The notes beneath the pieces are model-generated. The model did no database searches and had not been told where the DNA came from. It was given only the letters and a program-made list of their open reading frames with translations. Shown one piece after another: positions 5,341 to 29,681 of a DNA stretch of 64,000 nt (position 1 is its first letter; each line of letters opens with the position of its first letter). Origin of the DNA: Candidatus Krumholzibacteriia bacterium (GTDB taxonomy: Bacteria > Krumholzibacteriota > Krumholzibacteriia > Krumholzibacteriales > Krumholzibacteriaceae); contig CAWIIQ010000003.1 in assembly GCA_963836185.1 (NCBI GenBank), positions 288,001 through 352,000 of the forward strand, read 5' to 3'. A program made the position numbers and the translations under genes.

Positions 5341-7211
5341 ATGAGAGCCATGCTGACCAGCCTGATCCTTCTTGTCCTTGCATTTTCCGCCGCCCGGGGT
5401 TCCGAAGAGATGGACGCCCGTCGCCGGGACGCCGGAACCTACCTGATCGAGAACTATGACAGGACCGAGCATATGATCCCGATGCGCGACGGGATCAGTC
5501 TTTACACCGAGGTCTATACCCCGAAGGATCGTTCGGCCGCCTGGCCGATCCTTCTTAACAGGACCCCATACTCCGCATTCTTCGCCGGCGAGCGGGTCGA
5601 CGGCTTCTTCTGCTGGCCGGGGCCCGGACCGGCGTTCCCCGCTGAAGGGTATATTTTCGTCATCCAGGATGTCCGTGGACGCTTTCTCAGCGAGGGTGAT
5701 TTTGTGGTGATGCGTCCCAACACGGCCGGCGAAGGGGAGACGGATGAAAGCACCGACGCCTTCGATACGATCGACTGGCTCGTGCGGAATCTCGACAACA
5801 ACAACGGGCGGGTCGGAGTATGGGGGATCTCATACGGCGGATATTACTCGGCACTCTCGCTCGTGAACGCTCACCCTGCGATAGCCGCAGTTGTGATAGA
5901 GGCGCCTGTCGCAGAGGGATTTCTCGGGGACGATTACCATCACAACGGCGCCATGCAGCTTCTCTACCCCTTCCGGTGGATCAACAACGTCGGTCTGACC
6001 GAACGTGAGGGACCGTCCGCCGACCCGGTACCGCCCGTATTCCGGGGCAGGGAGGATGAGTTCTTCACCTTCTTCCTCGAGACAGGATCGGCCGCCGATA
6101 TCGACGCGAGATGCTTTCAGGGGAAGATAGATTTCTGGAACGGGATCGTAGAGCACGGTACGTACGACGATTTCTGGAAGGCCCGCAACCTCGGACAGTA
6201 TATGAGAGATATCGACGGCCCCGCGGTCCTCGTCTCCGGGTCCTGGTTCGATGACCAGGACCTTTTCGGGACCCTCCATACATACCGCGCGATCGAGGAT
6301 CAGAACCCCGGGATAACGAATACCCTCGTGATGGGAGTATGGAACCACTCCTCATGGTGGGATCAGAAGACGAAGCCATGGGGAGGCACCGGACTTCCGG
6401 CGAAGGAGACGGGGGAGCACTATCGCGGCGAGGTGCTGGCCCCTTTCCTGAAAGCGCACCTGAAAGGGGAGGGTGAATTTCAACTGCCCGAGGCTCTCGT
6501 CATCGAGAGCGGCACGAATCGTTGGTGCGAGTACGACAGCTGGCCGCCCGCGAAAACGGAACAGGTGAGTTTCTATATAAAGGGAGACGGCACGGTTTCG
6601 ACGGAGCCTCCCGGAAAGGGCGCTGTTGGATTCTCCGAATTCGTCAGTGATCCGGCCGATCCCGTCCCGCACCTTCCGACGCCGATCCACGGCTGGACGG
6701 CGGAGGTGATGCACTTCGACCAGCGGTTCGCCACGGAGAGGGAAGACGTACTGGCATATAGCTACGCGATCCTCGATGAGGACCTGACGCTCACCGGACC
6801 GGTCGAGGTCGATCTCTACGTTTCGACGACGGGGACAGACGCCGACTGGGTGGTTAAAGTGATCGATGTCTATCCCGACGATGCGGACGATCTCGCCGGG
6901 TACCAGATGCTCGTGCGGGGCGACATCATGCGGGGCAAGTTCCGCGGCAGCTTCGAGGACCCGGAGCCTTTCGTGCCCGGAGAGGTGACCCGTGTGCAGG
7001 TTCACCCTGCCCGACGTCAATCACACATTCCGCCGGGGGCACAGGCTCATGATCCAGGTGCAGAGCAGCTGGTTCCCGATGTTCGACCGCAATCCGCAGA
7101 CATTCGTCGATATATACCGCGCGAAGGAATCGGATTATGTGAAGGCGACGCACCGGGTCTACCATTCTCCCGGCTATCCGTCACTATATAATGGCAAGGG
7201 TGCTTCCCTGA
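5341..7211 (+). CDS. CocE/NonD family (S15) hydrolase, alpha-amino acid ester hydrolase-like; frameshifts near 7000 and 7185
   Basis: Signal peptide, RTPY, QDVRGRF, nucleophile GISYGG and STTGTDADWVVKVIDV. The C-terminus FTLPDVNHTF...QSSWFP continues in a shifted frame. Confidence 0.88.
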
Positions 7212-7306
7212 TCCTCTTTGAATGTTGCGGCTCGGCGCGGCAGCAAATATACTGGCCATGACAGGCTGCTGTATATTGTCCGGCCCTTAAACAGGAATAC
7301 TGACTT

Positions 7307-10300
7307 ATGACAGCTTCTAATAATTCCGGCCCTGCCGGCGGATTTATGACGATCGAAGGCGAAAGATTTTACCGAATCGGGAATTACGACCGGATGCCCC
7401 CATTCTTCATGAGCATCGCGAGCGATACCGATCTATGGATGTTCATCTCCTCCTCGGGCGGTCTGACGGCCGGAAGGGTCGATGCCGACGGGGCCCTGTT
7501 TCCCGTACGAGACCGTTGACAAGCTGCACGTGAGCAACCACCACACGGGGCCGGTCACTCTCATCAGGAAAAAGGGGGAGTGGAGACACTGGGTGCCTTT
7601 CACCGTAAGCTCGATCGAGGATTTTGATGTAGAACGGAATCTCTACAAGAACGTGATCGGCAACAAGGTGATCTTCGAGGAGATCAATCATGTCCTGGGG
7701 CTTTCCTTCAGATACCGCTGGGCCGCCAGTGATACTTTCGGGCACGTCCGGACCTCCTGGCTCGAAAACATCGGCGATTCGATGGCCGAGCTCACCGTTC
7801 TCGACGGCCTCAGGAATGTCATTCCCTGCGGCGCGCCGCTGCTGCTGCACCAGCAGCTCAGCTCTCTCGTCGATGCCTACAAGCGGACCGACGTGGATGA
7901 GGCGTCTAAAATGGGCATCTTCTCGCTTACCTCGAAAATCATAGACAGGGCCGAGGCCGCCGAGTCGCTGAGGGCGAATGTCGTGTGGTGCGACTCTCTC
8001 GTCCCTTTCGATGTATCTCTGGCGACGGATACCGTCAAGACATTCCGGCTCGGACAGGATCCCGAGAGCGAGACACTTCTGACCGGTCAGAAGGGCAACT
8101 ATTTCGTGAAGATGCAGTTCGATCTTGATTCGGAAGCCGAGACCAAATGGCACATAGTCGCAGATTCGGGGAAGGACCATACTGACATTTCCGCTCTGAG
8201 AGACACGATCACAGGCAGCGGGAGCCTCGACGCGGATATCGAGAAGAGCATCACGGAGGCCGGAGTCGCACTCGAACGCAATGTAGGGAGCGCGGACGGG
8301 ATCCAGCTCACCGGATACGAAGAGGCCTCGGTGCACCATTTCGCCAACGTACTCTTCAATAATATGCGCGGAGGCGTATTCACGGATAACTACACAATCG
8401 AATCTTCCGACCTGGCGGACTTCATCCGCCTCCGCAACAGTGAGGTCGCTGAACGGGAGAAGGGCTTCATCTCGGATCTTCCCGAACGCCTGAACGTGAA
8501 AGAACTTCTCGAGAAGTCCGCCGGGACGGGCGATCCCGATCTCGAGCGGCTGTGCCACGAGTACCTGCCGATATTCTTCGGGCGGCGCCACGGCGATCCG
8601 AGCAGGCCGTGGAACCGTTTCTCGATACACCTGAAGGACAGTGAAGGCGGCCGCCTGCTGAGGTACGAGGGGAACTGGCGCGACATATTCCAGAACTGGG
8701 AGGCGCTCTGCATGAGCTTCCCCGGTTTTCTGCCATCGGTGACGGCCAAATTCGTCAACGCCTCTACCGTCGACGGATTTAATCCCTATCGCATCACGCG
8801 CGAGGGCATCGACTGGGAGACAGTCGATCCTGACGATCCCTGGAGCTATATAGGGTACTGGGGGGACCACCAGATCATATATCTCCTCAAGTTCCTCGAG
8901 TCCCTGACGAAGTTCTATCCCGGGGCCCTGGAGGGGATGCTCTCCAGGGAGATCTTTTCTTATGCCGATGTTCCATACAGGATAAAGCCGTACGAGGATA
9001 TCCTCGATGATCCCGACTCGACGATCGAATATGATCACCAGCGCGCCAGGCTCGTCGATGAACGTGTCGAGGCGATCGGTTCGGACGGACGCCTGCTTCA
9101 TGAACCCGGCGGATCGGTCTATCACGTAAACCTGCTCGAGAAACTTCTCGTCCCCGTCCTTTCGAAGGTTTCCAATCTCGTTCCCGACGGCGGCATCTGG
9201 ATGAACACGCAGAGACCGGAATGGAACGACGCGAATAACGCGCTCGTCGGAAACGGCATCTCGATGGTGACTCTCTCGTACCTCAGGCGGCACGTGAGCT
9301 TCCTTGCCGGCCTTCTCGACCGGGGGGGAGACACAGGGATGCCGGTCTCGGACGAAGTCGCGGACTGGCTCTCCGTCGTGGATTCGGTCCTCGGATCGGC
9401 GCGCGGGCTTCTCGGCGACAGCGCCATTGACGATTCCGACAGAAAGAGAGTGCTCGATATGCTCGGGCGGTCTTTCTCCGAGTACCGCTCGAAGGTTTAT
9501 GCGAAGGGGTTCTCCGGGAAAAGGACGGTCAGGACGGCAAAGGTCGCTGGATTTTTCCGGACCGTCCTCGTCTGGCTCGACAACTCGATGGAGATGAACA
9601 GGCGCGAAGATGGCCTTTACCACGCCTATAACCTCCTCGAGATATCGAGAGACGGTGAAAGCGCGGCCGTGAAGCACCTCTACGAGATGCTCGAGGGCCA
9701 GGTAGCGGCTTTGAGTTCGGGTGAGGTGGCGCCGCAGGAAGCGATCGGCCTGCTCGATGCTCTCTTCAAGAGCGATATGTACAGGGAGGACCAGCACAGT
9801 TTCATGCTCTACCCGAAGAGGGAACTGCCGGCCTTCATGGACAAGAATGTCGTTCCCGAAAAGAGTGTTCTCGCGATTCCTCTTCTGGGCAGGCTCATCG
9901 ATTCGGGGGACCGTTCCGTGATAACCCGCGACGCTGGCGGCACATACCGGTTCAACGGTGATTTCGCGAATGCTATCGACCTTGCTTCCGCCCTCTACCG
10001 CCTTGCCGAGGACGAGAGCTGGGCTTCCGAGGTGTCAGCTGATAGGCAGGCAGTCTTCGATCTCTTCGAGGAAGTCTTTGACCACAGGTCGTTTACCGGC
10101 CGCTCAGGGACGATGTACGGGTACGAAGGGCTCGGCTGTATCTACTGGCACATGGTATCGAAGCTTCTTCTCGCGCTGCAGGAAGTCACGCTCAATGCCA
10201 CCGACGAGAAGGATCTTCAGGTCCTGGCAGATTATTACTACCGTGTCAGGGCAGGGCTCAGCTTCGAAAAGACCGCCGAAGAGTACGGGGCCTTCCCGGC

Positions 10301-10736
10301 TGATCCCTACTCGCACACTCCGCCTCACGCAGGCGCTCAGCAGCCTGGTATGACCGGACAGGTAAAAGAGGAGATCATCGCGAGATTCGGCGAGCTCGGA
10401 GTCATCGTGAAGGATGGTGTCCTGAGTTTCCGGCCCGTTCTTCTGAAGAGAGATGAGTTCCTCGAGGAAGCGGGCAAGTTCCTTTATTACAGTCTCGACG
10501 GGGAGAGAAATTCGATCGATCTTCCCGCCGGCTATCTCGCGTTTACATTCTGCCAGGTCCCGATCGTCTACGAGGTGACATCGGACAAGCCATGGATCCG
10601 GATCACCTCTTTCGACGGAACCACATCATCCATCGAGGGTGACAGCCTCGACGTGGACCGGAGCAGGTCGATATTCAACAGGCTCGGGACGATAACCCGG
10701 ATCGATGCCGGAATCCCCGCAGATACCCTCAGATAA
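7307..10736 (+). CDS. GH149 beta-1,3-glucan phosphorylase (frameshift near 7495)
   Basis: PPFFMSIASDTDLWMFISSSGGLTAGR, GRRHGDPSRPWN, YEGNWRDIFQNWEAL, GYWGDHQIIYL, YEGLGCIYWHMVSK and DPYSHTP...QQPGMTGQVKE; about 1140 aa; no signal peptide. Confidence 0.85.
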
Positions 10737-12227: not shown

Positions 12228-12290
12228 CTGCCTCCTCTTGTGATGAGATTGTTGTTTCGAACGATTTGCGGAATGTCCGCCATTTTCATC

Positions 12291-13886
12291 CTATCTGAGA
12301 AGAACCATCTTCCTTGTTTCTGCGAAATCTCCTGAACGGAGACGATAGAAGTATACGCCGGAAGAGACCGGCCTGCTGCTGTCGTCGAGACCGTTCCATG
12401 CGATCTCATGTGCACCGGTCGGGACGAAACCACTGGCAAGCACACGGACCCTTCTCCCCGCTACATCAAAAACAGTCAGTTCTGTATGGCCCCCCTTCTC
12501 AAGCGAGTATCTTATCGTCGTATTTGGATTAAACGGATTCGGGAAGGCTGACGACAGGCTGTAGGCCGGGGTCGCAGGCGGCTGCGTGTCTGTCGTGACG
12601 CCCTCGGGATAAAAGGCGAACCTGTCGATCACCACTTCCTGGTCGGAAGAAACCGGATCGGCCAGTTTCCAGAGGTTGATATGGACCCTTGGCTGCTCGG
12701 GCCTCGGGATATGCGGCCCGTAATATGTCCATTCGTGTATCATGTTCTGAGGCGATTCGTCGTGCGGCCCTCCGCGCCAGGCCCTGAACTCGACCCGGTC
12801 GCTGAGCCACCTGAACGCGTGGCTCACAAGCTCGCCCTCGGAAAATGTGTAGTCGAACCTGTCGATGTTCCCCTCATAGTCCCAGGGCTGCGCGACGAAC
12901 TGTCCGACACTGTTGCCGGGATCGCCCCACTTGCTGTACTCGATGTCGATCTCGTTGTAGGCGCCCCACCACCAGTATTCTTCGCTCCAGCACGATCCGT
13001 ATTCCCAGAGAAACATGCCGAGCACGATGTTGTGGTGGAGCTCGTCGAGCCTGCCGACTGTGGTGAAGATGTAGTCCCCGTATCCGAGCGCCTCCTCCGG
13101 GACGACCTCGGAACAGTACCAGGTGCCGCCGACGTCTCTTGCCGTGACATGGAGCCGCTCCTCGGCGTCGATCCAGACGGATGAGGGAGAGTCACTGAAA
13201 TAGTTATAGCCCGGGCCGTACCATCCCGGCCCCTTGACCCGCCAGGTCCTGCCGCTGAACTCGATCGTCCTTCCGCCGGGGAAGTCGTTCCACTGCTTGT
13301 CGTACTGCGAAGGAGGGCCGACGTTATAGAAGGTCGCCTGGTCGTAGTATACATCGGGGGGAGGATCGGTCGGGCTCTGCAGCACGCCCAGCATGAAATG
13401 CGTCCCGGCCGTTCCCGACGGGGCCGGCCCGCTCGTCACCGAGATCTTCTGAACCTCGCCGCGCACAGTGGAGGGAAGAATGATCTCGTGGGATTCGTAG
13501 CTTATGAGGTTATGCCACTCGTCGCGCCACTCGATGTTGAGGATCCCCCTGCTGCCGCCGGTGACCGGGTTCGTCGATGTGTGCCACGCGTCTACCGTTG
13601 CCGTCCACTGCTCGCCGGGAGCCGTATCGAACCTCTGCCAGTATGCCGATACGTCCCAGCCGCCGATGTCTGCCCCGCTGACCACCGCCGAATAGTATCC
13701 GTGGGTGGCGCTGGAGGATATCCCTGTCGAGCCGAACTGGAACCAGCCGGCAAAGTTATATGCTCCGGAGTCCTCGAACTCGAAACTGGGATTGGTCAGG
13801 ATGCACTGGGCCGATGAGTCCCGCGGTACGGAGGCTCCGAACAGAACAATACATAGAAGCAGGCAGATTCCCCGTTGATGCGACAA
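12291..13886 (-). CDS. Secreted GH16-like glycoside hydrolase with N-terminal CBM-like module and FlgD-like tail
   Basis: TTG start after AGGAG; ILTNPSF module; catalytic-like NEIDIEYSKWG (ExDxE); VHINLW; PNPFNP...RKMVLLR. Confidence 0.72.
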   Translation of the reverse strand: MSHQRGICLLLCIVLFGASVPRDSSAQCILTNPSFEFEDSGAYNFAGWFQFGSTGISSSATHGYYSAVVSGADIGGWDVSAYWQRFDTAPGEQWTATVDAWHTSTNPVTGGSRGILNIEWRDEWHNLISYESHEIILPSTVRGEVQKISVTSGPAPSGTAGTHFMLGVLQSPTDPPPDVYYDQATFYNVGPPSQYDKQWNDFPGGRTIEFSGRTWRVKGPGWYGPGYNYFSDSPSSVWIDAEERLHVTARDVGGTWYCSEVVPEEALGYGDYIFTTVGRLDELHHNIVLGMFLWEYGSCWSEEYWWWGAYNEIDIEYSKWGDPGNSVGQFVAQPWDYEGNIDRFDYTFSEGELVSHAFRWLSDRVEFRAWRGGPHDESPQNMIHEWTYYGPHIPRPEQPRVHINLWKLADPVSSDQEVVIDRFAFYPEGVTTDTQPPATPAYSLSSAFPNPFNPNTTIRYSLEKGGHTELTVFDVAGRRVRVLASGFVPTGAHEIAWNGLDDSSRPVSSGVYFYRLRSGDFAETRKMVLLR

Positions 13887-14015
13887 TTTCGCTCCTGTCA
13901 CTTCTGAACGGCTTGATGGTGCTTGCGCCGGCTCGGGCAGGCGGGCGCAAGCCCGAAGTGCCGGACTGACTGATAGCATAATACCATAAATCCGGGTGCA
14001 AGACAATGGACTTGA

Positions 14016-14234: not shown

Positions 14235-17200
14235 TTGAACGCACTGGTCAGAAGCAAAACGATAGTCAATCCTGGTACTGTCGGCGGCGGTCATCATCGC
14301 CGCCAATACTCCCGCATCCGCCCAGGTCGAACCTGAAGTGGTAGCCGTCAACAGCCCGGACGGCTCGAGACTCCTGGTCGACGGCCGGGACTTCATGATC
14401 TTCGGGATGAACTGGGGGTATATCCCGATCGGGGAGAACTATCTCTACAGCCTCTGGGCCCAGCCCGAGGACTTTATCCGGGAGGTCCTCGACCGGGACA
14501 TGCCGATGCTGAGGGACATGGGCGTAAACGTCATCCGCCAGTATGTGGGGATCCCGCCGAAGTGGGTAGAGTACATCTACAAAAACTACGGCATCTACAC
14601 AGTCGTGAACCACGCTATGGGCCGATACGGATTCACGATAGACGGCGTCTGGCACCCTTCGGTCGACTATTCCGACCCGAAGATGCGCAAGGCTATCACC
14701 GACGAGATCGTCGCGATGGTGGAGGGCTTCAAGGATACGCCGGGGATGCTCTTCTGGCTCCTCGGAAACGAGAACAACTACGGCCTTCACTGGTCCTCGT
14801 CCGAAGTCGAGGCACTTCCCGAGGGTCAGCGCGACGAGGCGAGGGCCCGCTACCTGTACACCCTGTACAGTGATGTCACCGACGCCGTAAAGGCGGCCGA
14901 TCCGCACCACCTCGTGGCTATCGCCAACGGCGACCTTCAGTACATCGACATAATCGCCGAGGAGTGCAGGAACCTCGACATCTTCGGCACGAACGTCTAC
15001 AGGGGGATCTCGGCACGCGATCTCTACAGCGAGGTAAAGAAGAAGCTCGGGATCCCGGTGATGTTCACAGAGTTCGGCGCCGACGCGTGGGATGCGAAGA
15101 ACCAGCGCGAGGACCAGCTTACGCAGGCGAAGTTCCTTATCGGACAGTGGGAGGAGATATACGAGCAGTCGTACGGCAAGGGCCGTGAGGGCAACGCTAC
15201 CGGAGGTATGATTTTCCAGTGGACCGACGGCTGGTGGAAGTTCGGGCAGGAAAGCCGCCTCGACTTCCACGACACGAACGCATCCTGGCCGAACGCCGGC
15301 TACCCCGATTTCGTCGAGGGACAGAACAACATGAACGAGGAGTGGTGGGGCATCGCCGCCAAGGGCTACCCCGACCAGAGGGGCCTTTTCGAGACGTATC
15401 CGAGGGCAGCGTACTACGCCCTGATGAAGGCCTTCACACTCGACCCGTTCGCGCCTGACACAGACCTGAAGGCTATCCGGGAGCATTTCGGAGCGATATC
15501 GCCGATCACCTTCATGATCGAGGCGAGGGCCGACCATAACGCGATGGTCGTCGAGAAGGTCGAGAAGATCAGGGTCTCGAACATGAGGATGGAGTTCGAG
15601 ACGTACAGCACCGGCGGAACGAACATAAGCACTCCCAAAGTCGGAGGAGCCTCAGCCCACGCTTCCCTCCTACCTGGGATTCGATCATCAGCAGTCTTTC
15701 TACACCGATTTCGAGGTGAAGCCGGCGCAGAACTTCACCGGCACACTCTCGCTCAACATCCTCGGCAACGTCGCGGGTCAACCCGGTAGACGAGATCTTC
15801 TACGAGAACCGCGGCAGGCGTCAGACAATCACTGATATCCGAGGGACGATACCGATCCGCCTCGACGGCATCGAGCGCGTCAAGGTCTACGGGGCCTCGG
15901 TGACCTGGGACGAGCCCTGGTTCCGCCTCGACGGGTACTACCGCGTCGGTCATACCCACTGGGGATACGAGGGAGATCTCTTCGGGATATACAGGGACGC
16001 CTTCTACGGCGAGAACCTGAACATCTACAACGCGCGACGCTCCGATCGGCGTCGAGATGACGCTGAAAAAGCAGCTCGATGGGCTCAAGATCGCCTTCGG
16101 CCCGCAGATGTGGTGGGGAGCAAACCCCGGCGATCATCTTCAAGTACTCGAGAAATGTCGGCAGAACGACCATCACGGGCCTGTTCCAGGAGGAATTCGC
16201 GAGGCAGGCTGATATAACGACCTCTTTCGTGGTCCCGCTGGCGCCAACACGCAGGGCCACTCTCGGCGTCAAGTCCAGCTGGCGAGGGCTCGGTTTCGAG
16301 GTCGGCGGTATCTGGTCAGGCTCGACCAAAGAAGACGAGTGGTTCCAGGTCGTACGTGAAGAAGGAGGCGCCGTCCAGATCTACGACGACCAGGTCAAGG
16401 CGAGCGATGCCCTTGGCGCAAAAGCAAGACTCACCTTCCAGCGCGGGAGGTGGAACTGGTACGCCGAGGGTGCCGTCCAGGGCCTCGTGGCGGATGGAGG
16501 GCCGGTCGCGATCCAGAACTTCACAGGCTGGAAGCTGAAGAACACAGGCTGGTACAACAACCAGGTCGTCGTATCGGGCCTGGCAGTGAACTTCGGCAAT
16601 TTCCAGCTCGGCCCGAACTTTCTCTGGCAGAAGCCGATAGAGGGACCGATACCGGGAGACGTGCCGCCCCCCGGGCGCCCGAGAAACGTCGTAGACGATC
16701 CCTTCGCTGTCCGCTACCAGAGGGAGATGACGGCAGGCGAGATCATTCTGACACACGATCCGACGCCGGCGACATGGATGTGGGCGTGGGACAATGACAT
16801 CCGTGAGGACGCCAGGCTGGCGTGGGCCCTCGGTTACGTCTACAGGCACATGCCGACGACGATGGATGCCTCGATAGGCGTCCTGGAGGATGGATACACA
16901 TTCTTCGCCTTCCCCGGCGCGACTCCTGCCCGAAACCTGTGGGAGGTATGGGGACGCACCGCGTCGAGGCTGTCTGCGAAGACCCGCCTCGATCACCCAC
17001 GTTCTTGTCGGAACTGCCGAGCCGCGCGGCGACGACCCGAGGCTCGTCGAGCGGTTCAGCGTCGATGCCAGGCTCACATCGGGCCCGTGGGCATTCGGGA
17101 CATTCGTGAAGGTCAACGACTTCGGCCCTTATGACTATCACCACGACTTCAACCAGACCTATCCGCTGCACCTGATGGGAGACCTCTCGTTCGCGCTCGG

Positions 17201-17384
17201 TGCGCCGAGATGGTTCGGATTCCCGCAGACGCGCATCGGGGTCAGGGGGCTGTGGAGGTCGCTCGACGAGTACTCGAACAGGTACTGTCCGGGGTATGAC
17301 GGATTCGGGGCGTGTGATCCCACGCTGCCGGGTGACGACGGAACGGAGTGGGAGATCCGGACCTACATGCACATCTCTCTGTAG
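14235..17384 (+). CDS. Clan GH-A (GH2/GH157/GH158-like) TIM-barrel glycosidase fused to a C-terminal beta-rich, probably outer-membrane barrel domain; several frameshifts
   Basis: RBS AAGGAG plus TTG and a signal peptide; GVNVIRQY, acid/base WLLGNENNY, nucleophile FTEFGAD and NEEWWG. About 600 aa of aromatic alternating strands end in EWEIRTYMHISL. Confidence 0.72.
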
Positions 17385-17413: not shown

Positions 17414-19212
17414 TTACCTGACCAGTACCATCGTCCTGGTCGCCGAACCTGCGCCGGATCTCGAGCCGGTAGTAGTAGACCCCGGAGCCGACACCGGTCC
17501 CGTGGTCGTTGCGGCCGTTCCAGTGCAGCGTGTTTATCCCTGCCGCCCCGATCCCGCTGAACCCGGTGACCCGGCGTCCGGCTACATCGTAGATCGTGAG
17601 GGTATAGGTCCCCGCCGCGGGCAGATCGAAACGGATCTCGGTCATCGCATTGAAGGGATTCGGGACGTTGGACAGGAGCTGGAGTCTCCGTCCGTCGGCG
17701 AGCCCGCCCTCTTCGACTCCGGTAGTGATACCGTCATCCCAGTAGATATCGTCCAGTGCGAATTCACAGGCCGCTCCGTGCTCTTCCAGAATGACGAAGG
17801 CATAGCTCAGCATCCGCAGATCGATGGCGAGCCCCCGTATGTCGATGACGGGGATCGAGGCCTGGCCCCATTCGCCGTCGCGAACCAGTCCGTAAGTCGT
17901 CGTATAGGCCGGAAACTCGACGTACTGCTGATTGCCCCATGCATCGATGATCCCGATCTTGAACGTGACGTATCGCGGGTATCTTGATCCGGAACTTCAG
18001 ATGCCCCTCGCCGAAGTCGAACAGGTTAAGCGGCTGCATCGACATGATGCCGGCGCCGAACCAGCCCAGGCCGGCCGTCTGCCACGACAGCACATTGTCG
18101 CCCTCGTACGGGGGGATGGATCCGTCGATGAGGGTCCCTTCCCACACGTAGATCTCCGATGAGACCTCGGCCTCAAGCTCGCCGTTGACAGGCGTCTCAT
18201 CAGTGTAGATACCGAACTTGCCGCTCTCGAATTCCGGCGGCCCGAGGTGGACCTCGCCCTGGCCGTTCCACTCGTAGACCCTGATGTAGTCGATGTACAT
18301 CTCCGCGGGAAAGGGCATCGAAACTGCGGCGCCGCTTCCGGGATCACCGAGATTGTAAGCATCGGTGAAGACCCCGCCGATGGCGAGGTTCGCGATGAGA
18401 TAGAAGGGTTTCGTGAATTCGTCCGAGACCTCGGTGATCTCCAGCGGGTATGCGTAAAGGTCGTATTCTACGCCGTCGTCGATGACGGTAAATCTCAGGC
18501 TGTCTTCGTCCCAGTATGTACGGTAGATCAGGAAGCGTTCGGTAAGGCCGGGGGAATAGTTGTAGTAAGGGCGGCAGTAGTCGTCATCCGGATCCCACGA
18601 GATGCTTGCCGCGCCGGTAGGATTCTCCGGTGAGACCGCGTCGTCGGAATAGAAGATCGCGTTGGCGCCCACAGCCTCATTTACAGTCGAGTTGTCCAGC
18701 CCGTTGCCGCCATTGTGCCCGTCGTGCAGGTTCCTGAATGACTGCGTTGCCCCCATCTCCATCAGGTCCATCTCACCGCAACGGGGCCACGCGTAATTGG
18801 CGTTGCCGAGGAGCCAGACCGCGGGCCAGCCGCCCAGGTCGATGTCGGGGATCCTCACCCTGGTCTCGATCATGCCGTACCTGATCGTGACAAACGACTT
18901 GGACATCACCCTGCCTGATGTGTAGTTCAGCGGATTTCCCCACTGGTCGACGATGCCAGGGCCGCTCTCCTGCCGGGCGGTGATGCGCAGGGCCATGTTT
19001 CCGGTCTCGCCGGGGATCTCGGCGATATCGACGTTGTTCTCTGCGTAGAACTCCAGCTCGCCGTTTCCCCAGCCCCAGCCCCCGTTACCGGTGAGCTTGA
19101 TCCAGTTGTCCAGGTTGTTGAAATCATCTTCCCAGACCAGGGTGCCGATCTGTGCGTGCGCCACATTCCCGGCCAGCAGTATTGCCACGATCAATACGAT
19201 GATCATTCTCAC
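17414..19212 (-). CDS. Secreted GH16 laminarinase (GH16_3-like) with CBM-like domain and FlgD-like tail; frameshifts near 17975 and 17450
   Basis: WGWGNGELEFY, YTSGR, WPAVWLLG, WPRCGEMDLME (ExDxxE), NLAIGG and PNPFN tail. Confidence 0.88.
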
Positions 19213-19227
19213 GTGTTGTTCTCCTCT

Positions 19228-21131
19228 TTACCTGGCCAGAATCATCTTTTTAGTCTCTGAGTATCCGTCTGCGTCGAGCCTGTAAAAATAGACGCCGGCC
19301 GCGACGACCAGTCCCGCCTGATCGCGCCCTTTCCAGGCGATCTCGTGATGACCGGCGGGAGTCGATTCCGCGGAAACCAGCTTCTGCACAAGTTTGCCGG
19401 CCACATCATAGATGGCCAGGTTGACGGTCGCCGGAACCTGCAGGTCATAACTTATCGTCGTCACCGGATTGAAGGGGTTGGGATAACAGGGATGCAGTAT
19501 TACCCCGGGTGTCCGGGCGCCGGGCGTGGCGCCGGTCGACACCCACAGGACTTCAAAGTAATTGACGTTGAATCCCTCCGCGGTCGGCACAAATCTCATC
19601 GTCTGTGTGCCGGCGGTGAGTGTCGATGTCACCGAGACGGTCGTCCATGTCTGCCATCCGGTCGTGACAGGCACGATGACCTCGCCGGTCTCATCTATGC
19701 CGTTGAACTCCACATGGAATGTGCCTCCGGAGGAAAGTGAGGCTACGCGCTTGCTTCTATCACGTAATCTCCGTCTGGCGGGAACAGTCACGGTGTATTC
19801 GAGCCATTCGCTCTGGTTCAGCCACCCGACGTTGTATCCGCCGCCGGTGTCGGTACATTCCTCGATGTCGACATCATCGGAGCGGTACTGTGAGCCATTG
19901 TTGCCCGCGTCCGTATCGTGGTATGCGACGTTTTCTCCTCCGGCATCGTAATCTTCCGCTTCTATCCTTGCCGGAAAGACAAACGCGCTTCCGAGGAAGG
20001 GCGCCTGCCCGCAACCTGTCCCGACGGTGATATCGACAGAGGCCGTTTCGACTGCCGCCGAGGTCATCGATCGCTCTGGCGACTATCTCGTAACATCCGT
20101 CAGGGACGGAGGCCCAGGTGAAGGAGTACGGCGCCGTCGTGTCTTCTCCCAGATAGGCATAGCCATTATAAAACTCGACGGTCGCGATAGAGCCGTCCGT
20201 ATCGGAAGCGGTCGCGTCGATCGTGATGTCTCCCGCGGGAAGGGTGCTGCCTGAGACGGGCGATGTTATGGAAACAGTGGGTGCGGCGTTCGGTATATCT
20301 TCGTATACCCGTGACGTAGTCGACCAGGAACTGCTGTGGAAGCGTCGCAGTAATGCAGCCCGGGTTCGTGCAGCCGGTGTAGTTGCCGCCTATAGCGGCG
20401 TTTAATATGATGTAGAAATCCTGGTCGAAGGGGGCCTGCGGGTTGCCGGGCGCCGCGTCGGTATACCACTGCGCGCTGGTCCTTGTATAAAAGAGGACGC
20501 CATCGACATACCAGCGCATCTCGTCGGGCTCCCATTCGATGGCATAGATGTGGAAGTCATCGGCGAAACTCGCTCCGCCGAGAGAATATGATCCGCCCGA
20601 ATAAGTATTGCTCGGGATAAGCGCCGCCGTAATGGATCGTTCCGCCGACAGACGTCATCTCGTTCGCCGATTCCATGATATCGATCTCACCGCTCGCGGC
20701 CCATCCTCCATAGACGTCATCCTGGGGCATCATCCAGAACGCGGGCCACATTCCGCCTCCGACCGGCAATCTGGCCCTCATCTCGATCTTTCCGTAGAGG
20801 AAGGTGTGCTTGTTTCTCGTGGTGACCTTGCCCGATGTATAGCTGCGGCCTCCGTATGATTCCGCGAGGGTCGTGATGACGAGGTTCCCGCCTGAAACGG
20901 ACAGGTTCTCGGCCCGGTAATACTGGAGCTCGTTATTGCCCCACCCGCACAGGCTCGGGCACCCGTCGCCGATATCGGGGGTCCACCTGGTGAGGTCGAG
21001 GCTGGATCCGTTGAACTCGTCCGACCAGACGAGTGAAAAGGTGGCGCTGGCGGGAGTGATCAGACCCGGTGGTTATAATGATTCCAAATACCAGAAGGCC
21101 TGATTGATGCGGCAGTTGATGTCTTCGTCAT
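19228..21131 (-). CDS. Secreted GH16 laminarinase with Ig-like domain, CBM6 and FlgD-like tail; several frameshifts
   Basis: GWGNNELQYY, WPAFWMMP, WAASGEIDIME and NAAIGG; CBM6 motifs IEAEDYD...GYNVGW...TGWQTW...NVNYF; PNPFNP...KKMILAR. Confidence 0.85.
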
Positions 21132-22265: not shown

Positions 22266-22296
22266 TTCATTGAATGACTGTTGAACTGGTCCCGGG

Positions 22297-23313
22297 CTAA
22301 CTGCCGGCCTCGCCCGACATGGCCTCTTTCGCGCTCCGGTCAGCGCGAAACAGCCCCCAGTGCTTCTCGACTTCCGCAGGATTTGTCCCGCCTTTCCAGT
22401 TCTCGTCAAAGGCTTCGAAGAAGAAGACTGTCTGCCGCTCCTCCACCGCCCAGGCGCGGATCGGCCTCGTAGAATAGCCGCTGTTCTGCTTCCCCGGGCT
22501 TCCCCTTGATCAGCTTGCCCTGATCGCCCTCGTCGATAACGGAAGTGGCCCATCCCGTTTCTCCGATCACGACGAGCCGGTCCGGATGCATCTCCTGTAC
22601 GATCTTCAGCTGATCGCGCTGCCAGTCCAGCGCCTCTTCGAGCTGGAGGCCGTTCCACATCGGATGACCGTGCAGCAGTATAAAGTCGATCTCTGAAGAG
22701 AGCTCCCGGCTTTCCGGCTTGTTCCAGTAAGTTGAAATCATCGGCCACCGTCACGGGAACTTCGACACCGTCGCGTACCCGCCTTACATGCCCTTTCACG
22801 ATATCCACGTAATTGACATGTGCCGACCAGTATATCATCGTCTCGTTACCTACGCTCACAGCGGCGACTATCGCGGGGTATTCATTTGCGAGGCGTATTC
22901 CCGCGTCGACTTCCTTCCGGTTCTTCGCCGCTGCTTCATCGAATCGCTCCAGGACCTCGCCCGCTTCATCGCGCTTCTCCTCCGGATCGATCCATACGCC
23001 GAGGATCACCTTTACATCGATGTCATTCTCACGGATCACCTTCAGGAAGGTCTCGGCAAACCCGGAGGCTCCGTAGATACGGATCAGTTTCCAGTGCGGC
23101 AGCATCAGGCGCAGGTCCTCGAGGAGCTCTTCCGCCGACGGCTGAACTGCATAGGGGCGCTGGCCGTCCCGATGAGGCCCGTAACATACCGCGTTGTATA
23201 TCCGTTTCCCGTCCACGACCGGATCGAAGGGCCGGACCTTGAAAGATCTCCGCATGACATGACGGAAACGAGCACTATCAGGGCCAGGATCATCATACTG
23301 GTAAAAGGCGCAT
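22297..23313 (-). CDS. GH17 beta-1,3-glucanase/glucosidase, probable lipoprotein; frameshifted
   Basis: AVCYGP, IRIYG, LGVW, acid/base VSVGNE, PVTVADD, nucleophile IGETGW and FEAFDExWK...EKHWG across frames; lipobox-like VMSC. Confidence 0.85.
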
Positions 23314-23511
23314 GAAAAACCACTCCTTCTCGATTACTGAATGTGACAGCTTGAGCTGGAGACGATCGTTACCGGATAATATTGTCCTGTCTGCGAAAAG
23401 ACTTCAAGACATCAAATTCCCGGACCGGTTTCCCATGGTGGACGGCTCTGGAACAAACCACTATAATTGCCGGGAATCTGTATTTTTAAACGGGATCAGG
23501 GAGCAAACCGC

Positions 23512-25011
23512 ATGTACAGGATCATTTTATCATTGTTGATTGCAGGCCTGTCTGTCGGCGTGTGCGGGGCAAAAGCCGGTGGAGGAAGAGATGCGGGCCA
23601 GGATAATCCAGACCTCGCGGGCCGGTGACAGGTTAAAACAACTGGAACCCCGTACATTTTCGAAAATAGAATCCGGCAACAAAACAGGGATAGAACTCGA
23701 TCCCGGTGTCACATACCAGGAGATCGTCGGTTTTGGAGGATCCTTTACGGAGGCCTCCGCCCATGTGCTCAGCCTGTTGAGTGCGGAGAAACGCCAGGCT
23801 GTGATCGACGCCTATTTCAGCTCTCCGGCTCTGCCTACTCCCTGACAAGGACCCATATCAACAGCTGTGACTTCTCCCTGGATCACTATGCCTATGTCGA
23901 ACGAGGGGACCTCGAGCTGGAGACTTTCTCCGTCGAACACTGACATGAAGGTTCTGATACCCCTGATCAAGGGACGCGATGGCCGCGGACGGCGCCGACT
24001 TCAGGATCATCGCGTCACCATGGACCGCGCCGGACTGGATGAAGGACAATGACAGCTGGTACGGGGGGTCGCTCAGGCCCGGCCTGGAACCGGTATGGGC
24101 CCGGTATTTCAGCATGTACCTCCAGGCTTACAGGGAGCAGGGGATCGAGATATGGGGCATTACTCCTGAGAACGAGCCTCTCGGCAACGATGGCAACTGG
24201 GACAGCATGCACTTCACTCCCGAAAGCATGCGCGACTTTATCCGTGATCACCTCGGGCCCCGGCTCAGGCAGGACGGCTGGGATACAAGGATCCTGATCT
24301 TCGACCAGAACCGTGACCATGTCGAGGAATGGGCAGAGGTGATCCTCGGTGATCCGGAAGCTGCGAAATACGTATGGGGCACCGCGGTCCACTGGTACAG
24401 CAGCACGGTGGACTGGTATCCCGACGCACTGGGCAGGGTACACGAACGTTACCCGGACAAGCATATTCTGCACTCGGAAGGGTGCATCGATACCCAGGTC
24501 CCGGTCTGGCAGGATGATGACTGGTACTGGCGCAGGGAAGCAAAGGACTGGGGTTTCACATGGGCCCCTGAAGACAAGAAGGCCGATCACCCCATATACG
24601 TCCCGGTCTATCGTTATGCCCGCGACATCATCGGCGGCCTGAACAGCTGGATGACCGGCTGGATAGACTGGAATATCGTGCTGGATACGCAGGGCGGGCC
24701 GAACCTCGCTCAAAACTGGTGTGTAGCGCCGGTCATCGCCGATCCCGAAACGGACGAGGTCTACTTTACGCCCCTCTATTACACGCTTGCCCATTTCAGC
24801 AGGTACATACGGCCCGGAGCCAGGCGGATCGAGGTCAGAGTCTCACCTGCCGGCGCTCATGGCGACAGCCTGCGTCAATCCTGACGGCCAGATCGTACTG
24901 GTCCTGCTGAACCAGCAGGAGGAGGAGCTGGAATTTCCGCTCCGGCTCGGAGAGCTGGAAACGGTGATCTCCATCCCGGGGGAATCGATCCAGACGATAC
25001 TGATCGACTGA
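23512..25011 (+). CDS. GH30 glycoside hydrolase (GH30_1-like, candidate beta-1,6 debranching), lipoprotein; frameshifted
   Basis: YQEIVGFGGSFTE, RTHINSCDFS, ASPWTAPDWMK, ITPENEP, HWY, HSEGC, WIDWNIVLDTQGGPN and HFSRYIRPGA. Confidence 0.88.
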
Positions 25012-25035: not shown

Positions 25036-27234
25036 ATGAATATCGAAGACAGGCTCTCTGTCAAAGAAAAGATCGGTTACGGGTTCGGGGATACCGCCTC
25101 CAATCTTTACTTCCAGATGTTCATCAATTTTCTCCTCTTCTTCTATACTGACGTCTTCGGGATCCCGGCCGCCGTGGCGGGAACCCTCTTCATGGTCTCG
25201 CGATTCTGGGACGCGGTAAACGATCCGCTTGATGGGGATAATCGCCGACAGGACAAATACGAAGTGGGGGAAATTCCGGCCTTACCTCTTGTGGATGATG
25301 CTCCCGATGGCCGTCACCGGTGTTCTGGCATTTACGACACCCGACCTCGGCCTGCAGGGCAAGATCATCTATGCCTTTATCACCTATATCCTCGTGATGA
25401 TGGCATATACTGCGATCAATATTCCTTACTCCGCGCTGCTGGGGGTCCTTTCGCCCCATTCAAGGGAGAGGACGAGCGCCTCGACCTATCGATTCGTGCT
25501 GGCATTCGCCGGAGCTTTCATAATACAGGGCGCTACTTTGCCGCTCGTGAATTCCCTCGGGCACCAGGACCAGGGGGTCTCGTTGTCGGGCGGTATCGTC
25601 ACAATAGAAGAAGTCGACACGCGGACATCCAAGATCATAGTCGAAGCTGGCGATGGCCAGAACAAGACATCCCGGGAATTCCTGGTCAAGATCAACAGGG
25701 AGGGTGAGGGCCCCCCGGTTGTTCATAATCCTGCCGGAGAGATCGTCCTGGAGCAGGGATTCGCAGCGAGGCGGATCGCCCTGGGCGACATATTCAGCAG
25801 CCCTTTCGGGGACAGGCTGCTCTATGAAGCATCAAGCAGCGAGACCGGTGTCGTCGAGATGGCCGTAGAATCGGAATCGGTCCTGATCCTCAGGGAGACA
25901 GGGCCGGGGATCTCCAGGATCACCCTGACGGCATCCGACGAACACCATGGAAGCAGGGACCACTCGTTCACCGTCAGGATCAATGAGGCGGGGAACGGTC
26001 CGCCGGTCCTGGCAGAAGAGATTCCCGACGTGACGCACGATCCGGAATCCGGAACGGCATACAGTAGACCTCTCGGAATACTTTACCGACCCGGACGGGG
26101 ACCAGCTCAGCTTCAGCGCGTCATCCGGGGACAACGCGGTGGTTTCGGCCGATATCGAGCGGCAACGGGGCGGTCCTTGATATCAGAAAGGCCGGCATCT
26201 CGGAAATCACCGTAACGGCGACCGACGGCAGGGGAGGCTCGGCGACAGGTTCCTTCCTCGTCAAGGTCGAGTCGGGGGAGAACGATCCTCCGGCAATCGA
26301 TCAGCTCCTTCGACAATGTTGAGCTGAACGAGGGATTCGGCGAGTACGTGATGGATCTCTCTGGAGCGTTCATCGATCCGGAGGGAGAGGATCTGACATT
26401 CTCCGTCAGGAAAGTAGATGTCGCGAAAGGGTTCCAGTATACGCTCGTCATATACGGGGTGCTCGCATGTATCCTTTTCTACCTGACATTCGCTCTTACG
26501 AAAGAACGTGTTCAGCCATCGAAGGACCAGCAGACATCGCTCAAGAAGGATCTGGGAAACCTCGTGCGGAACAGGCCCTGGATGATCCTTCTCGTGATGA
26601 GCATGTTCACTCTCGGGTACATAATAGTCCGTATGGGCACGATCCTTTATTACTTCAAGTATTACATCGAAAACGAACTGCTCGCTTCCCTCTTCATGGT
26701 AACGGGGACCGTCGCCGTCATCGCCGGCGTGGCCTGCACCGCTTTTCTTTCCAGGAAGCTGGGCAAGAAGAGGCTCTACCTGATCGTCATGGGCCTGGCG
26801 AGCCTCTTTACGCATGGTCTTCTACCATATACCGAAGGACCAGATAGCCCTCGTCTTCGCGGTGCAATATAATCATCTCGTTCGTGATGGCCCCGCAGGC
26901 GCCTCTCCTCTGGGCGATGTACGCCGACACCGTCGATTATTCGGAATGGAAGTTCGGGCGAAGGGCCACGGGCCTGATCTTTTCCGCGGCGACATTCTCG
27001 CAGAAGTTCGGGATGGCGCTTGGCGGCGGACTGGCAGGCTGGCTGCTGGCCAGGTTCAATTTCCAGCCGAACGTGACCCAGAGTGCCGAGACGCTGACGG
27101 GAATAAAGCTGATGATGAGCTACATCCCCGTGGCGGGAACGGTAATAGCGATCATTGCCGCTCTCTTCTACGAGCTGGACGACAAGACGATGGAAAAGAT
27201 CGAGAAGGAGCTCGCCGAGAGGAAGGCGAACTGA
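25036..27234 (+). CDS. GPH family (MelB/XynT-like) MFS sugar symporter with a ~285 aa Ig/cadherin-like insertion; frameshifted
   Basis: KEKIGYGFGD, WDAVNDP, DRTNTKWGKFRPY, NIPYSAL, TKERV and MYADTVDYSEWKFGRRATG. The insertion spans about 25560-26420. Confidence 0.9.
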
Positions 27235-27239
27235 GCCTC

Positions 27240-28085
27240 TTATCTGTCGGGCCTGTACACCCGGACCCAGTCGATAAGCATCGTCTGCGGGAAGACGGTG
27301 GTCTCGTCAGGCGGCCCGACGTAGTTGCCGCCGACGGCGACGTTGAGGATGATGAAGAACTTGTGGTCGAAGACCCAGCTGCCCCTGGCTGTGACGCTTG
27401 TCTTCGTGAGGTTGAAATATTCCTTGTCGTCGACGTACCAGACTATCCGGTCCTCTGTCCACTCGATGCCGAAGACATGAAAATCGTCGTTGAAGCTGCC
27501 GCCGAGCAGGTACTGGCGGTAGAGGGCGTCGCCGCCCGAATAGCCGGGACCGTGAACCGCCCCTGATACTATGCTCGGAGACTGTCCCCGGTATTCCATG
27601 ATGTCGATCTCGCCGCAATCGGGCCAGCCCACCGTGCCGATGTCCGCGCCGAGAAGCCAGAAGGCCGGCCAGATCCCCTGGCCTATCGGAAGCTTGATGC
27701 TCGCTTCGAACCTGCCTCCCCCCTGCTCGAAGAGACCCTGCGTCTTGATCCGCCCCGAGGTGTAGTCGCGGGTCTCATACCTTTCCTCAATGGCGATTAT
27801 CCTGAGGTTGCCGTTCCCGTCGAGGGAGACGTTCTCCGGCCTGTCGGTGTCGTACTCGAGCTGATCGTTTCCCCACCCGTTTGTTCCGGTTCCGATGTCG
27901 TATGTCCAGTTCGCCGGATCGGGAAGCTGACCTTCCGGTCCCTCGAATTCGTCTTCCCAGGCGAGCACGTACGTCCAGTCGTCCTCAGTGTCGTCGCTGC
28001 ATCCGGGCAGTACCGTCAGCAATACGATGACGACGGTCAGGAGGGTGAAAATCCTGCCAGAGTATTTATTCCACGTGCGCTTCAT
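27240..28085 (-). CDS. GH16 laminarinase lipoprotein
   Basis: Lipobox LPGC; GWGNDQLEY, YTSGRI, WPAFWLLG, WPDCGEIDIME, NVAVGG and IDWVRVY. Confidence 0.92.
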   Translation of the reverse strand: MKRTWNKYSGRIFTLLTVVIVLLTVLPGCSDDTEDDWTYVLAWEDEFEGPEGQLPDPANWTYDIGTGTNGWGNDQLEYDTDRPENVSLDGNGNLRIIAIEERYETRDYTSGRIKTQGLFEQGGGRFEASIKLPIGQGIWPAFWLLGADIGTVGWPDCGEIDIMEYRGQSPSIVSGAVHGPGYSGGDALYRQYLLGGSFNDDFHVFGIEWTEDRIVWYVDDKEYFNLTKTSVTARGSWVFDHKFFIILNVAVGGNYVGPPDETTVFPQTMLIDWVRVYRPDR

Positions 28086-28114
28086 GTTTCTCTCTGCCTG
28101 TGCTGCCCGCCGGT

Positions 28115-29523
28115 CTACTCTTCAGGTGGTACCTTGTAGAAATAGATATTGTCGGCAAATATCGTGATATCCGATCCCGTGAGGTACATCTGAGCCAGCG
28201 CCGATCTCCCGGTCAGGCCTCCGGGGACCATGTAATCCTCGAGGGGGATGTCGAGGCTTGACCAGCTGCCCGGTGTCAGGGGCGGGGTCGAGCCGAGCGA
28301 GATGTAGATCTCCTTTTCGGAGTCGTCGCCGCCGAGGTACTCTTTGTCCGGCCCGTAATCGATCAGCTTGATCCCGACCACGGACACGCCCGTGGGTATC
28401 CAGAGGTCGAGATGCAGGTAGTCCATCTCCGTCGCGTCGATGACGTATGTCTCGGTGATGATCCCCGCGTAAGTCACATTCGTGTAGAGCAGGACGTTGT
28501 CGCCGTCGATCTGGAAGTCCGTGAGATCCGCGCCGTCCCATTCGGGCGAGTACGAGTCCACGGGCCAGTCGGAATAGACGTCGCTGAACACCGATATCAC
28601 GTCACCGGAGGGCTCTGTCGGCTCATCCGCCGGCACCACCGGGGCGGCGAGGGCCGTGAAATCTATATCGCCGTCGGCGGGGACCGTTCCGAGCGCCGCC
28701 GTGAGTATGGCGGTTCCGGTGCTGAGGGGCTGGGCCATGCCGTCGACCACCTCCACCACGTCGTCGTCCGAGGAGAAGAAGGTGAAGTAGGCGGGCATCG
28801 AGCTGACCAGCATATCGGTCCCGACGACATCGAATGTCACTGTCGTGCCGGGTATCGGGACAGATGCCCCGAGGTAGGCGCTTAACTCGGGATATCTGAA
28901 GCACGGGCCTCGGATTCTCGATAAGATCCGTTTTCTCGAACATGATGTCGTCGAACCAGATCGTATATCCCGCGTTGTCCTCGTGCCCTTCCGAGAAGAA
29001 GAACAGGCCGCCCTCGAGGGCCAGCTTGGAAGGCTCAGGAATGGGAATGATATACTTGTCCCAGGAGTTGGATATTCCCAGGTTGTACACTGTCGCCGTG
29101 TATATCGAGTTCCCCGAGTTGTCGTTTGCTATACCTATCTCGTTTATCGTCGCCGAAGCCTTGCTGCAGCGCGCCCAGAACGTCAGGGCGTCGTAACCCG
29201 TCAGGTCGCGCCCGTAACCGTCGACGCAGGTGCCGCCGGCGTACCAGTTCGCGTCCGGCGTGGCATCTTCCGGGCCGGGGATGGTGACTTTCAGAGACGC
29301 CGTCCCGTTATACTTGACCTGAAGGATCGACCTCCGTGGCGTCGTACTTGCTGTTCAGGAACGCCTGGTAGTCGACTCCGGGTGCGAAATTGTCCGTGAA
29401 CACCAGCGGGTCCGTGTTGGCGGATGCCGGTACGAAGCCGCTTTCGTCACGGCTGCAGGCTGAGACCATCAGCGTTGCTGTGACAGCCACGGCTGTGAAA
29501 AGGATCCTCTTCGTAATCATCAT
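28115..29523 (-). CDS. Lipoprotein with CBM-like and Ig-like domains (putative surface glucan-binding protein); frameshifted
   Basis: Lipobox VSAC; RDLTGYDALTFW, IWFDDI, VISVFSDVY, IDATEMDYLHLDLW and IFADNIYFYK; no catalytic motif seen. Confidence 0.65.
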
Positions 29524-29681
29524 GCGCCTCCATTGATATCAGGAGCTTATATCCCTCTACGGGACAGGTGATGTATTCGGTATTCCATAACAACTATCAA
29601 TTAACCAGTGATTCCCTTGTAATATATGACTATTCATAAGTTCCGGTCAATGCGGGTTTATACCTAAGTACCCTTTCATAC

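Follow-up and report, generated by a model that had tools for sequence, protein, structure and literature searches.

The locus analysed here raises the question of how a bacterial transporter came to hold an array of immunoglobulin (Ig)-like repeats in a loop between two of its membrane helices, and what such an array might do there. The gene lies in a stretch of DNA of 64,000 nucleotides (the window) from a Candidatus Krumholzibacteriia bacterium, on contig C3 of a genome of 3.5 Mb in 6 contigs. Its features and those of its neighbours are collected in the table below.

Features of the symporter gene and of neighbouring genes (positions are those of the window)
Feature	Coordinates	Strand	Remarks
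GH149 beta-1,3-glucan phosphorylase	7208..10733	+	NF058639, 1235 bits vs cut-off 1150 for 8100-10712
GH17, frameshifted	22290..23315	-	N-terminus of its L099 relative looks lipoprotein-like by eye
GH30 glycosidase, frameshifted	23512..25011	+	directly upstream of symporter; also upstream in L002, L097, L098 and L099
GPH:cation symporter gene with Ig insert	25036..27234	+	~730 aa once six +1 frameshifts are read through
MFS N-terminal part, TM1-TM5, MelB-type cation site residues	25036..25561	+	frameshift near 25227
C-terminal half of split basal Ig-like domain (repeat positions 46-94)	25562..25696	+	beta strands in AF2
Complete repeat D1 (Ig-like), DxDGD largely lost	25705..25984	+	PPV at 25711
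Complete Ig-like repeat D2, Big_9-like, DxDGD kept	25991..26268	+	GNGPPV at 25991; frameshifts near 26053 and 26159
N-terminal half of split basal domain (repeat positions 1-45)	26281..26413	+	NDPP at 26281; frameshift near 26298
MFS TM6-TM12 with K655 (MelB K377)	26423..27234	+	frameshifts near 26813 and 26864
GH16, convergent with symporter	27240..28235	-	Pfam scan

The reading frame is interrupted six times, and a preliminary description of this DNA had placed the frameshifts at about 25230, 26060, 26170, 26300, 26815 and 26870. Alignment of related organisms' contigs to the gene agreed with these places, a single base of the window being absent from those contigs at 25227, 26053, 26159, 26298, 26813 and 26864. 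The 2199 nt less these 6 give 730 codons and a stop, the same length as in the intact relative P0001, which is the closest among the matches listed and 88% identical over the query. Intact frames of 757-780 codons were present in two same-genus genomes and one other genome of the family, and one related contig of 1145 nt covered positions 25708-26856. A misassembly or two separate genes was rejected on these grounds, and the single gene assumed at the outset was upheld. The neighbouring genes, unrelated oxidoreductases included, are mostly frameshifted likewise, from which we infer that the window's own copy is intact; its six single-base insertions are probably errors of assembly or consensus, and a pseudogene is unlikely.

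By its sequence, the product is a member of the GPH:cation symporter family (TC 2.A.2) of the MelB type, the family to which the preliminary description had assigned it. P0001 scored 415.5 bits against TIGR00792 (cut-off 231.35), and each of four pieces of the window exceeded the MFS_2 cut-off in the Pfam scan. The AF2 model of P0001 displayed the 12-TM MFS fold and matched MelB (7L16) with a Foldseek E of 7e-15 and a TMt of 0.81, the matches of this model being to MelB and MFSD2A at a TMt of about 0.8. Residues D55, N58, D59, T121 and K377 of MelB align to D59, N62, D63, T125 and K655 (P0001 numbering), which are 93-100% conserved; the available part of PMC8329300 names these cation-site residues, N58 excepted. 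The position of MelB Gly117 is Met in the alignment, so that coupling to Na+ is likely but Na+ over H+ is not certain. The galactoside pocket is not conserved, MelB K18, D19, D124, W128 and W342 aligning to S, N, N, S and A, and the MelB equivalog NF007749 gave 249 bits, below its cut-off of 456, four of these residues (D19, D124, W128 and W342) being changed. The protein thus shares with the MelB/GPH family (TIGR00792, MFS_2; PDB 7L16, 4M64) the 12-TM fold, the cation site and glycosidase and phosphorylase neighbours, but differs in lacking the galactoside pocket and in bearing an Ig insert in the TM5-TM6 loop.

In the translation, TM5 (QGATLPLVNSLG) ends at 25561 and TM6 (GFQYTLV) starts at 26429, and the loop between them has 287 aa, compared with 5 aa in most insert-free relatives. 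An insertion of about 285 aa at this place, composed of a lone C-half, two full repeats and a lone N-half, had been described before, and both its size and its order were confirmed. The two halves tile repeat positions 1-45 and 46-94 with almost no overlap or gap. The order is reversed relative to ordinary arrays in all 131 insert-bearing rows (116 CNCNCN, 14 CN and 1 CNNCN), a set in which P and L rows are partly duplicates, from which incomplete rows had been dropped beforehand and for which the first search was seeded with the C-half. In ordinary arrays, a run started with the N-half in 148 of 178 cases and ended with the C-half in 151 of 188, by which measure the reversed order of the insert is no accident. 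We regard the fusion architecture, with C-half, D1, D2 and N-half following one another inside a symporter loop, as almost certain.

The repeat profile matched 23,212 representative proteins, many of them as one continuous stretch of about 280 positions; none of the best 150 of these matches had MFS parts, and long arrays were found instead. Among 24 array proteins taken from these 150 and scanned, all contained Big_9 and 7 had a type IX secretion tail. The insert of the same-genus relative L096 scored 28 bits against Pfam Big_9 (cut-off 23.6), with D2 covering positions 1-88 of 89, while the Pfam scan of halves-only inserts gave no match. Judged by these repeats, the insert is an out-of-register slice of a very common Big_9-like Ig array. 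It has the repeat unit of the Big_9, Cadherin_4 and He_PIG tandem arrays of large secreted proteins; those arrays, however, run mostly from N-half to C-half, whereas here the slice is out of register and both of its ends are anchored in the membrane. The DxDGD motif, which we take to be a cadherin-type Ca2+ motif, is kept at 0.79 in D2 and 0.64 in the split domain and at 0.14 in D1. Conservation in the insert is mostly at fold-type positions; the positions conserved above ordinary arrays were a GF motif and one Glu, which may be inherited features of the donor subfamily instead of marking a binding patch. An intein-like element, thought of on account of the scattered distribution, was discarded, the Pfam scans of the insert containing no such family. 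A target-site-like duplication at the insert ends was also dropped, both motifs being present in only 18 of 111 rows.

The loop is predicted to face the periplasm, as had been supposed, both by homology and by charge. Loop EL3 of MFSD2A, the equivalent of the loop that holds the insert, is extracellular according to the available part of PMC12754898. The even-numbered loops flanking the insert are rich in Lys and Arg, in keeping with a positive-inside pattern, and the insert itself is acidic (23 K+R vs 47 D+E). A cytoplasmic loop was rejected on this homology and charge pattern. The AF2 model of P0001 had a mean pLDDT of 84 and a pTM of 0.81, and its 10-residue blocks covering the two halves lay at 81-93; its insert was all-beta and gave Foldseek matches to MfFcnA4, SraP and cadherins with E values of 1e-9 to 1e-5. 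A ring of three domains is inferred from the chain connectivity together with this pTM.

Inserts that consist of the two halves only occur naturally, and in the AF2 model of one of them the halves folded into one beta-sandwich (blocks at pLDDT 68-89, linker at 42-49). This model aligned over 63-88 residues, across both halves, to single Ig/FN3-type sandwiches; its best structural alignment had a Z of 5.2, which is below the distinctive Z of 8, with an rmsd of 4.2 over 73 aligned residues, and Foldseek found nothing for the same model at E 0.001 or better. Such a pattern, a low-Z alignment without a Foldseek match, is what a changed strand order would produce. In the two-chain co-fold, the halves scored 0.42 against 0.00 for the best control, the runs agreeing in at least 96% of contacts at a partner pLDDT of at least 73. 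Of the solved pairs, 116 of 157 reached the co-fold mark, as did 2 of the 215 mismatched ones, and among those reaching it, scores of 0.60 or less belonged to 18 solved pairs and both mismatches; the result is a weak pass, and the score may reflect likeness to solved Ig folds. Taken together, the order, the exact tiling, the natural halves-only variants, AF2, the structural alignment and the weak co-fold make it very likely that the two halves fold together as one permuted basal domain, and the earlier claim that they complement each other into one split domain is supported at the level of prediction. The halves might instead pair between two chains and give a domain-swapped transporter dimer, cis and trans pairing being indistinguishable from sequence and the two-chain test passing weakly; we consider this highly improbable, as the two halves are attached to neighbouring helices within one chain and single-chain models give them a confident fold.

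The termini of an ordinary Ig domain sit at opposite poles, and such a domain therefore cannot replace a loop of 5 residues. Only a slice cut inside a domain sets both ends beside TM5 and TM6, so the permuted domain would be the adaptor on these helices, with D1 and D2 as optional extensions.

In a search that covered longer proteins and yielded 1194 matches, the insert was intact in the best 120 of the matches listed, with three domains in 111, two in 1 and a single one in 8. Named carriers belong to Krumholzibacteria, Fidelibacterota, KSB1, Bacteroidales, Sedimentisphaerales, Calditrichaceae and Balneolaceae. The insert of L100, from a genome of the window's family, is identical to that of P0060, a protein under the NCBI name Candidatus Krumholzibacteria. 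Of 208 genomes of the host phylum 7 had the insert, as did 5 of the 251 sampled from a Bacteroidota order, many genomes being incomplete. Single-domain forms appear at several places of the core tree and each keeps exactly the two halves, D1 being deleted in both the one- and the two-domain forms. Since close insert-free sister proteins exist (79-82% core identity) and three-, two-, one- and zero-domain forms occur among relatives, the insert was counted as optional. Its presence label required 14 changes on a 58-row tree, at least 6 of the changes being forced by starred branches; the rows were hand-picked, and such counts cannot tell gain from loss. Mean pairwise identity was 36% for the insert vs 59% for the core. 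The insert tree has broadly the shape of the core tree (Spearman 0.73 for the 5671 pairs among 107 rows, the pairs not being independent), which implies long retention and favours one old gain with many losses. Hopping of a cassette between paralogues was not favoured, the core clades mostly recurring in the insert tree, where deep branches are weak. An insert-free symporter in L040 (9980-11425) has a 12-aa loop that ends like the insert-bearing forms and is possibly a remnant of imprecise insert loss.

A second Big_9 insert, of 116-125 aa, occupies the same TM5-TM6 loop in 27 of the 120 relatives listed (P0124-P0150; also L037:9959-11701, L058, L067 and L079), whose carriers include the cultured Marinilabiliaceae Labilibacter sediminis, Saccharicrinis carchari and Carboxylicivirga species. 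The Marinilabiliaceae cores group in a single starred clade that lies within a set of insert-free proteins, and their insert could not be aligned to the window's type; it is therefore a separate gain. The insert opens with a C-part (Big_9 33-88 of 89). Its trailing 27 aa gave no Big_9 match alone and a 16% hhalign match to N-parts, which were 19 Big_9 units all from one protein; the stretch is apparently the missing N-part, which would make this insert permuted at another cut, and this identity depends mainly on a visible P-x-A..D...V-x-A-N-D motif. The permutation is less well supported in Marinilabiliaceae than in the window. Unrelated inserts were seen in the same loop in L012:4858-6462 (Ancylomarina, beside GH94 and GH9; 87 aa, beta-rich-looking, no Pfam match) and in P0177 (175 aa, helical-looking). 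Other MFS families seem to carry outward domains as well. ESM Atlas clusters contained PTR2+Big_9 (19% of 62 members) and TLC+He_PIG, and eight long Bacteroidota POT frames (L180, L187, L189-L194) contain insertions that reach about 200 aa and lie between the last two helices; read by eye, the loop inserts of these eight frames, from 201 Bacteroidia-level genomes searched, contained no repeat motifs of the window type.

The insert could be a tolerated structural passenger or a mild stabiliser, folded since misfolding would harm the transporter and having no partner of its own. Its repeated loss and shrinkage, its conservation mainly at fold-type positions, its patchy presence in the host phylum and the Bacteroidota order, and the unrelated inserts of L012 and P0177 would suit this explanation. 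However, the three-domain length is held at 283-314 aa over cores down to about 40% identity, the insert tree follows the core tree, with the dependence among pairs noted above, and DxDGD is kept domain by domain. The constant length and the domain-specific retention argue against pure decay, and we consider a passenger unlikely.

The neighbouring genes bear on the cargo and on possible partners. GH30 is probably co-transcribed with the symporter. Phosphorylases of GH94, GH130 and GH149 are normally cytoplasmic, and GH149 is a likely cytoplasmic user of the imported sugar. As GH149, GH16s, GH17 and GH30 all occur in the window, the cargo probably consists of short beta-1,3-gluco-oligosaccharides. 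Other genes of the window were noticed as well. The window at 14266-17384 (+), intact in L097:12551-15769, encodes a protein of about 1050 aa whose N-terminus is signal-like and which has a TIM barrel resembling GH2/GH72 and, in its C-terminal part, an outer-membrane-like end; it is also present in L017 and L031 and had no NCBIfam match. At 28115-29540 (-), upstream of GH16, there is a conserved lipoprotein-like gene of about 470 aa (also L096:6928-8343 and L097:6466-7881) without a confident Pfam family, possibly a surface glycan-binding protein. Several proteins encoded at 10800-13990 (-) and 17460-21050 (-) are secreted and end in C-terminal tails of the FlgD-Ig/type IX-like kind; they include a GH16, a CBM6 and two that lack a catalytic annotation.

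Across the 12 insert loci tabulated, no neighbour family was shared across lineages: GH94 was found in 4, GH30 in 3, GH16 in 2 and GH130 in 1, and 3 had no tested family. GH9 lies beside the insert-bearing L005. The closest insert-free relative, L007, is in a GH149/GH17/GH30 locus, and the Marinilabiliaceae loci L037, L058, L067 and L079 all contain GH149, GH16 and GH3. These loci bear on whether the insert is a module for glycan capture, binding oligosaccharides, perhaps at low specificity and in a Ca2+-dependent manner, and passing them on to the pore. Every host locus with recognisable neighbours is a glycan-utilisation locus, about 70% of weighted rows have Trp or Tyr at one hairpin position of D1, and the available part of PMC7326809 (citing Fraiberg 2011) counts cadherin-like domains from Saccharophagus degradans among carbohydrate-binding modules. 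Yet Trp makes up 0.2% of insert residues and none is conserved above 46%, D1 with its aromatic position is deleted in the one- and two-domain forms, the same insert accompanies beta-1,3-glucan, GH94 and GH130 loci, and L007 lacks it in a locus of the same kind. We judge glycan capture, the first idea of the preliminary description, quite unlikely, and the specific capture of laminari-oligosaccharides is weakened by the lack of a strongly conserved Trp, the varied glycan loci and the fact that near relatives in loci of this type have no insert. The other proposal of that description, docking of GH17/GH30 lipoproteins or of an outer-membrane barrel, loses its specificity, the insert standing beside GH94, GH130 and GH9 elsewhere and being absent from similar loci of close relatives.

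A low-specificity docking or clustering role of the insert is the function that we tentatively prefer, by analogy with the Ig domains of PepT1/2 and with MalF's P2 loop. Mammalian PepT1 and PepT2 also have Ig-like domains in an outward MFS loop; the accessible part of PMC4597091 reports that these bind trypsin, can be removed without loss of transport and were proposed to recruit an upstream hydrolase. They differ in being eukaryotic peptide transporters with two tandem Ig lobes on the C-terminal bundle and, in that part of the paper, no mention of a split domain, whereas the present protein has three Big_9-like domains on the N-terminal bundle and a permuted base. MalF P2 likewise is an Ig-like domain in a periplasmic loop of a sugar importer from bacteria and docks a partner by binding MalE (PMC6906923, available part), but MalF belongs to an ABC transporter with that defined partner, and no partner was recognised among the scanned neighbours here. 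MFSD2A (PDB 7MJS, 7OIX), of the same family clan, also has an enlarged TM5-TM6 loop that forms an extracellular domain; that loop, however, is short, disulfide-linked and without Ig repeats, and the protein transports lysolipids.

In the docking reading, the out-of-register Big_9-like slice in the TM5-TM6 loop would form the predicted periplasmic ring, seated on its permuted adaptor. DxDGD in D2 and the split domain, and its loss from D1, would give two joints stiffened by Ca2+ and a single hinge, if cadherin-type motifs are a guide. The ring surface would hold periplasmic hydrolases or other copies of the transporter near the pore, and this docking would raise uptake while not being required for it. 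Against docking, no single conserved partner fits the varied neighbours, to judge by the loci compared, and the phosphorylases among them are normally cytoplasmic; the insert evolves fast, and a nearly neutral domain would equally be expected to be lost time and again. The passenger and the glycan-capture module are close rivals. The ring might alternatively act mechanically, as a lid tuning the outer gate via TM5 or as a spacer to peptidoglycan or the outer membrane. The pTM of the 730-aa model exceeds the approximately 0.6 possible from the core of about 445 aa alone, which suggests that in the model the insert sits firmly on the transporter, and the equivalent loop of MFSD2A is a functional extracellular domain (PMC12754898, available part); variants of one to three domains and another Ig subfamily at the site nevertheless suit a precise gate or ruler poorly, and we regard such a role as very unlikely. 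As a whole, the protein is read as a likely Na+-coupled GPH importer of beta-1,3-gluco-oligosaccharides with a predicted three-domain periplasmic ring as a non-essential docking arm, a reading to which we give a probability of about 0.42.

A wider reading would join the two insert types: bacterial MFS proteins would have repeatedly captured out-of-register Ig slices from the repeat arrays of secreted proteins, with at least two gains in the GPH TM5-TM6 loop and cuts after strand C here and apparently after strand B in Marinilabiliaceae, permutation would be what geometry demands of a domain fitted into a short loop, and the module would be a Ca2+-stiffened receptor recruiting periplasmic glycosidases or oligosaccharides. 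We hold this joint reading to be rather doubtful; if true, it would provide an ABC-like capture stage for single-chain symporters.

The architecture had been presented as undescribed. No description of a GPH symporter with an Ig insert was found in the literature searches, which covered open-access text (including the available parts of PMC13543919 and PMC8154325), and in this sense the architecture is new for GPH symporters within the literature searched; it is not unique, being patchily widespread, and Ig domains in an outward MFS loop are already known from eukaryotes. In their available parts, a 2026 review puts the length of glycoside MFS proteins at 400-550 aa and names only LacS as exceeding this (PMC13543919), MFS fusions are described as usually C-terminal (PMC10710835), and these two reviews portray the MFS importers of glycosides in bacteria as bare carriers of 12 helices. 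With a folded Ig module in the periplasm, bacteria would have a counterpart to the extracellular domain of mammalian PepT1/2. The insert is a case of circular permutation that was likely favoured by loop geometry, and it marks the TM5-TM6 loop as a site of an MFS transporter that tolerates grafted domains. The natural series of three, two, one and zero domains, together with the form that cultured Carboxylicivirga, Saccharicrinis and Labilibacter gained separately, makes the system testable, and the insert could show how selfish glycan foragers link periplasmic hydrolysis to uptake.
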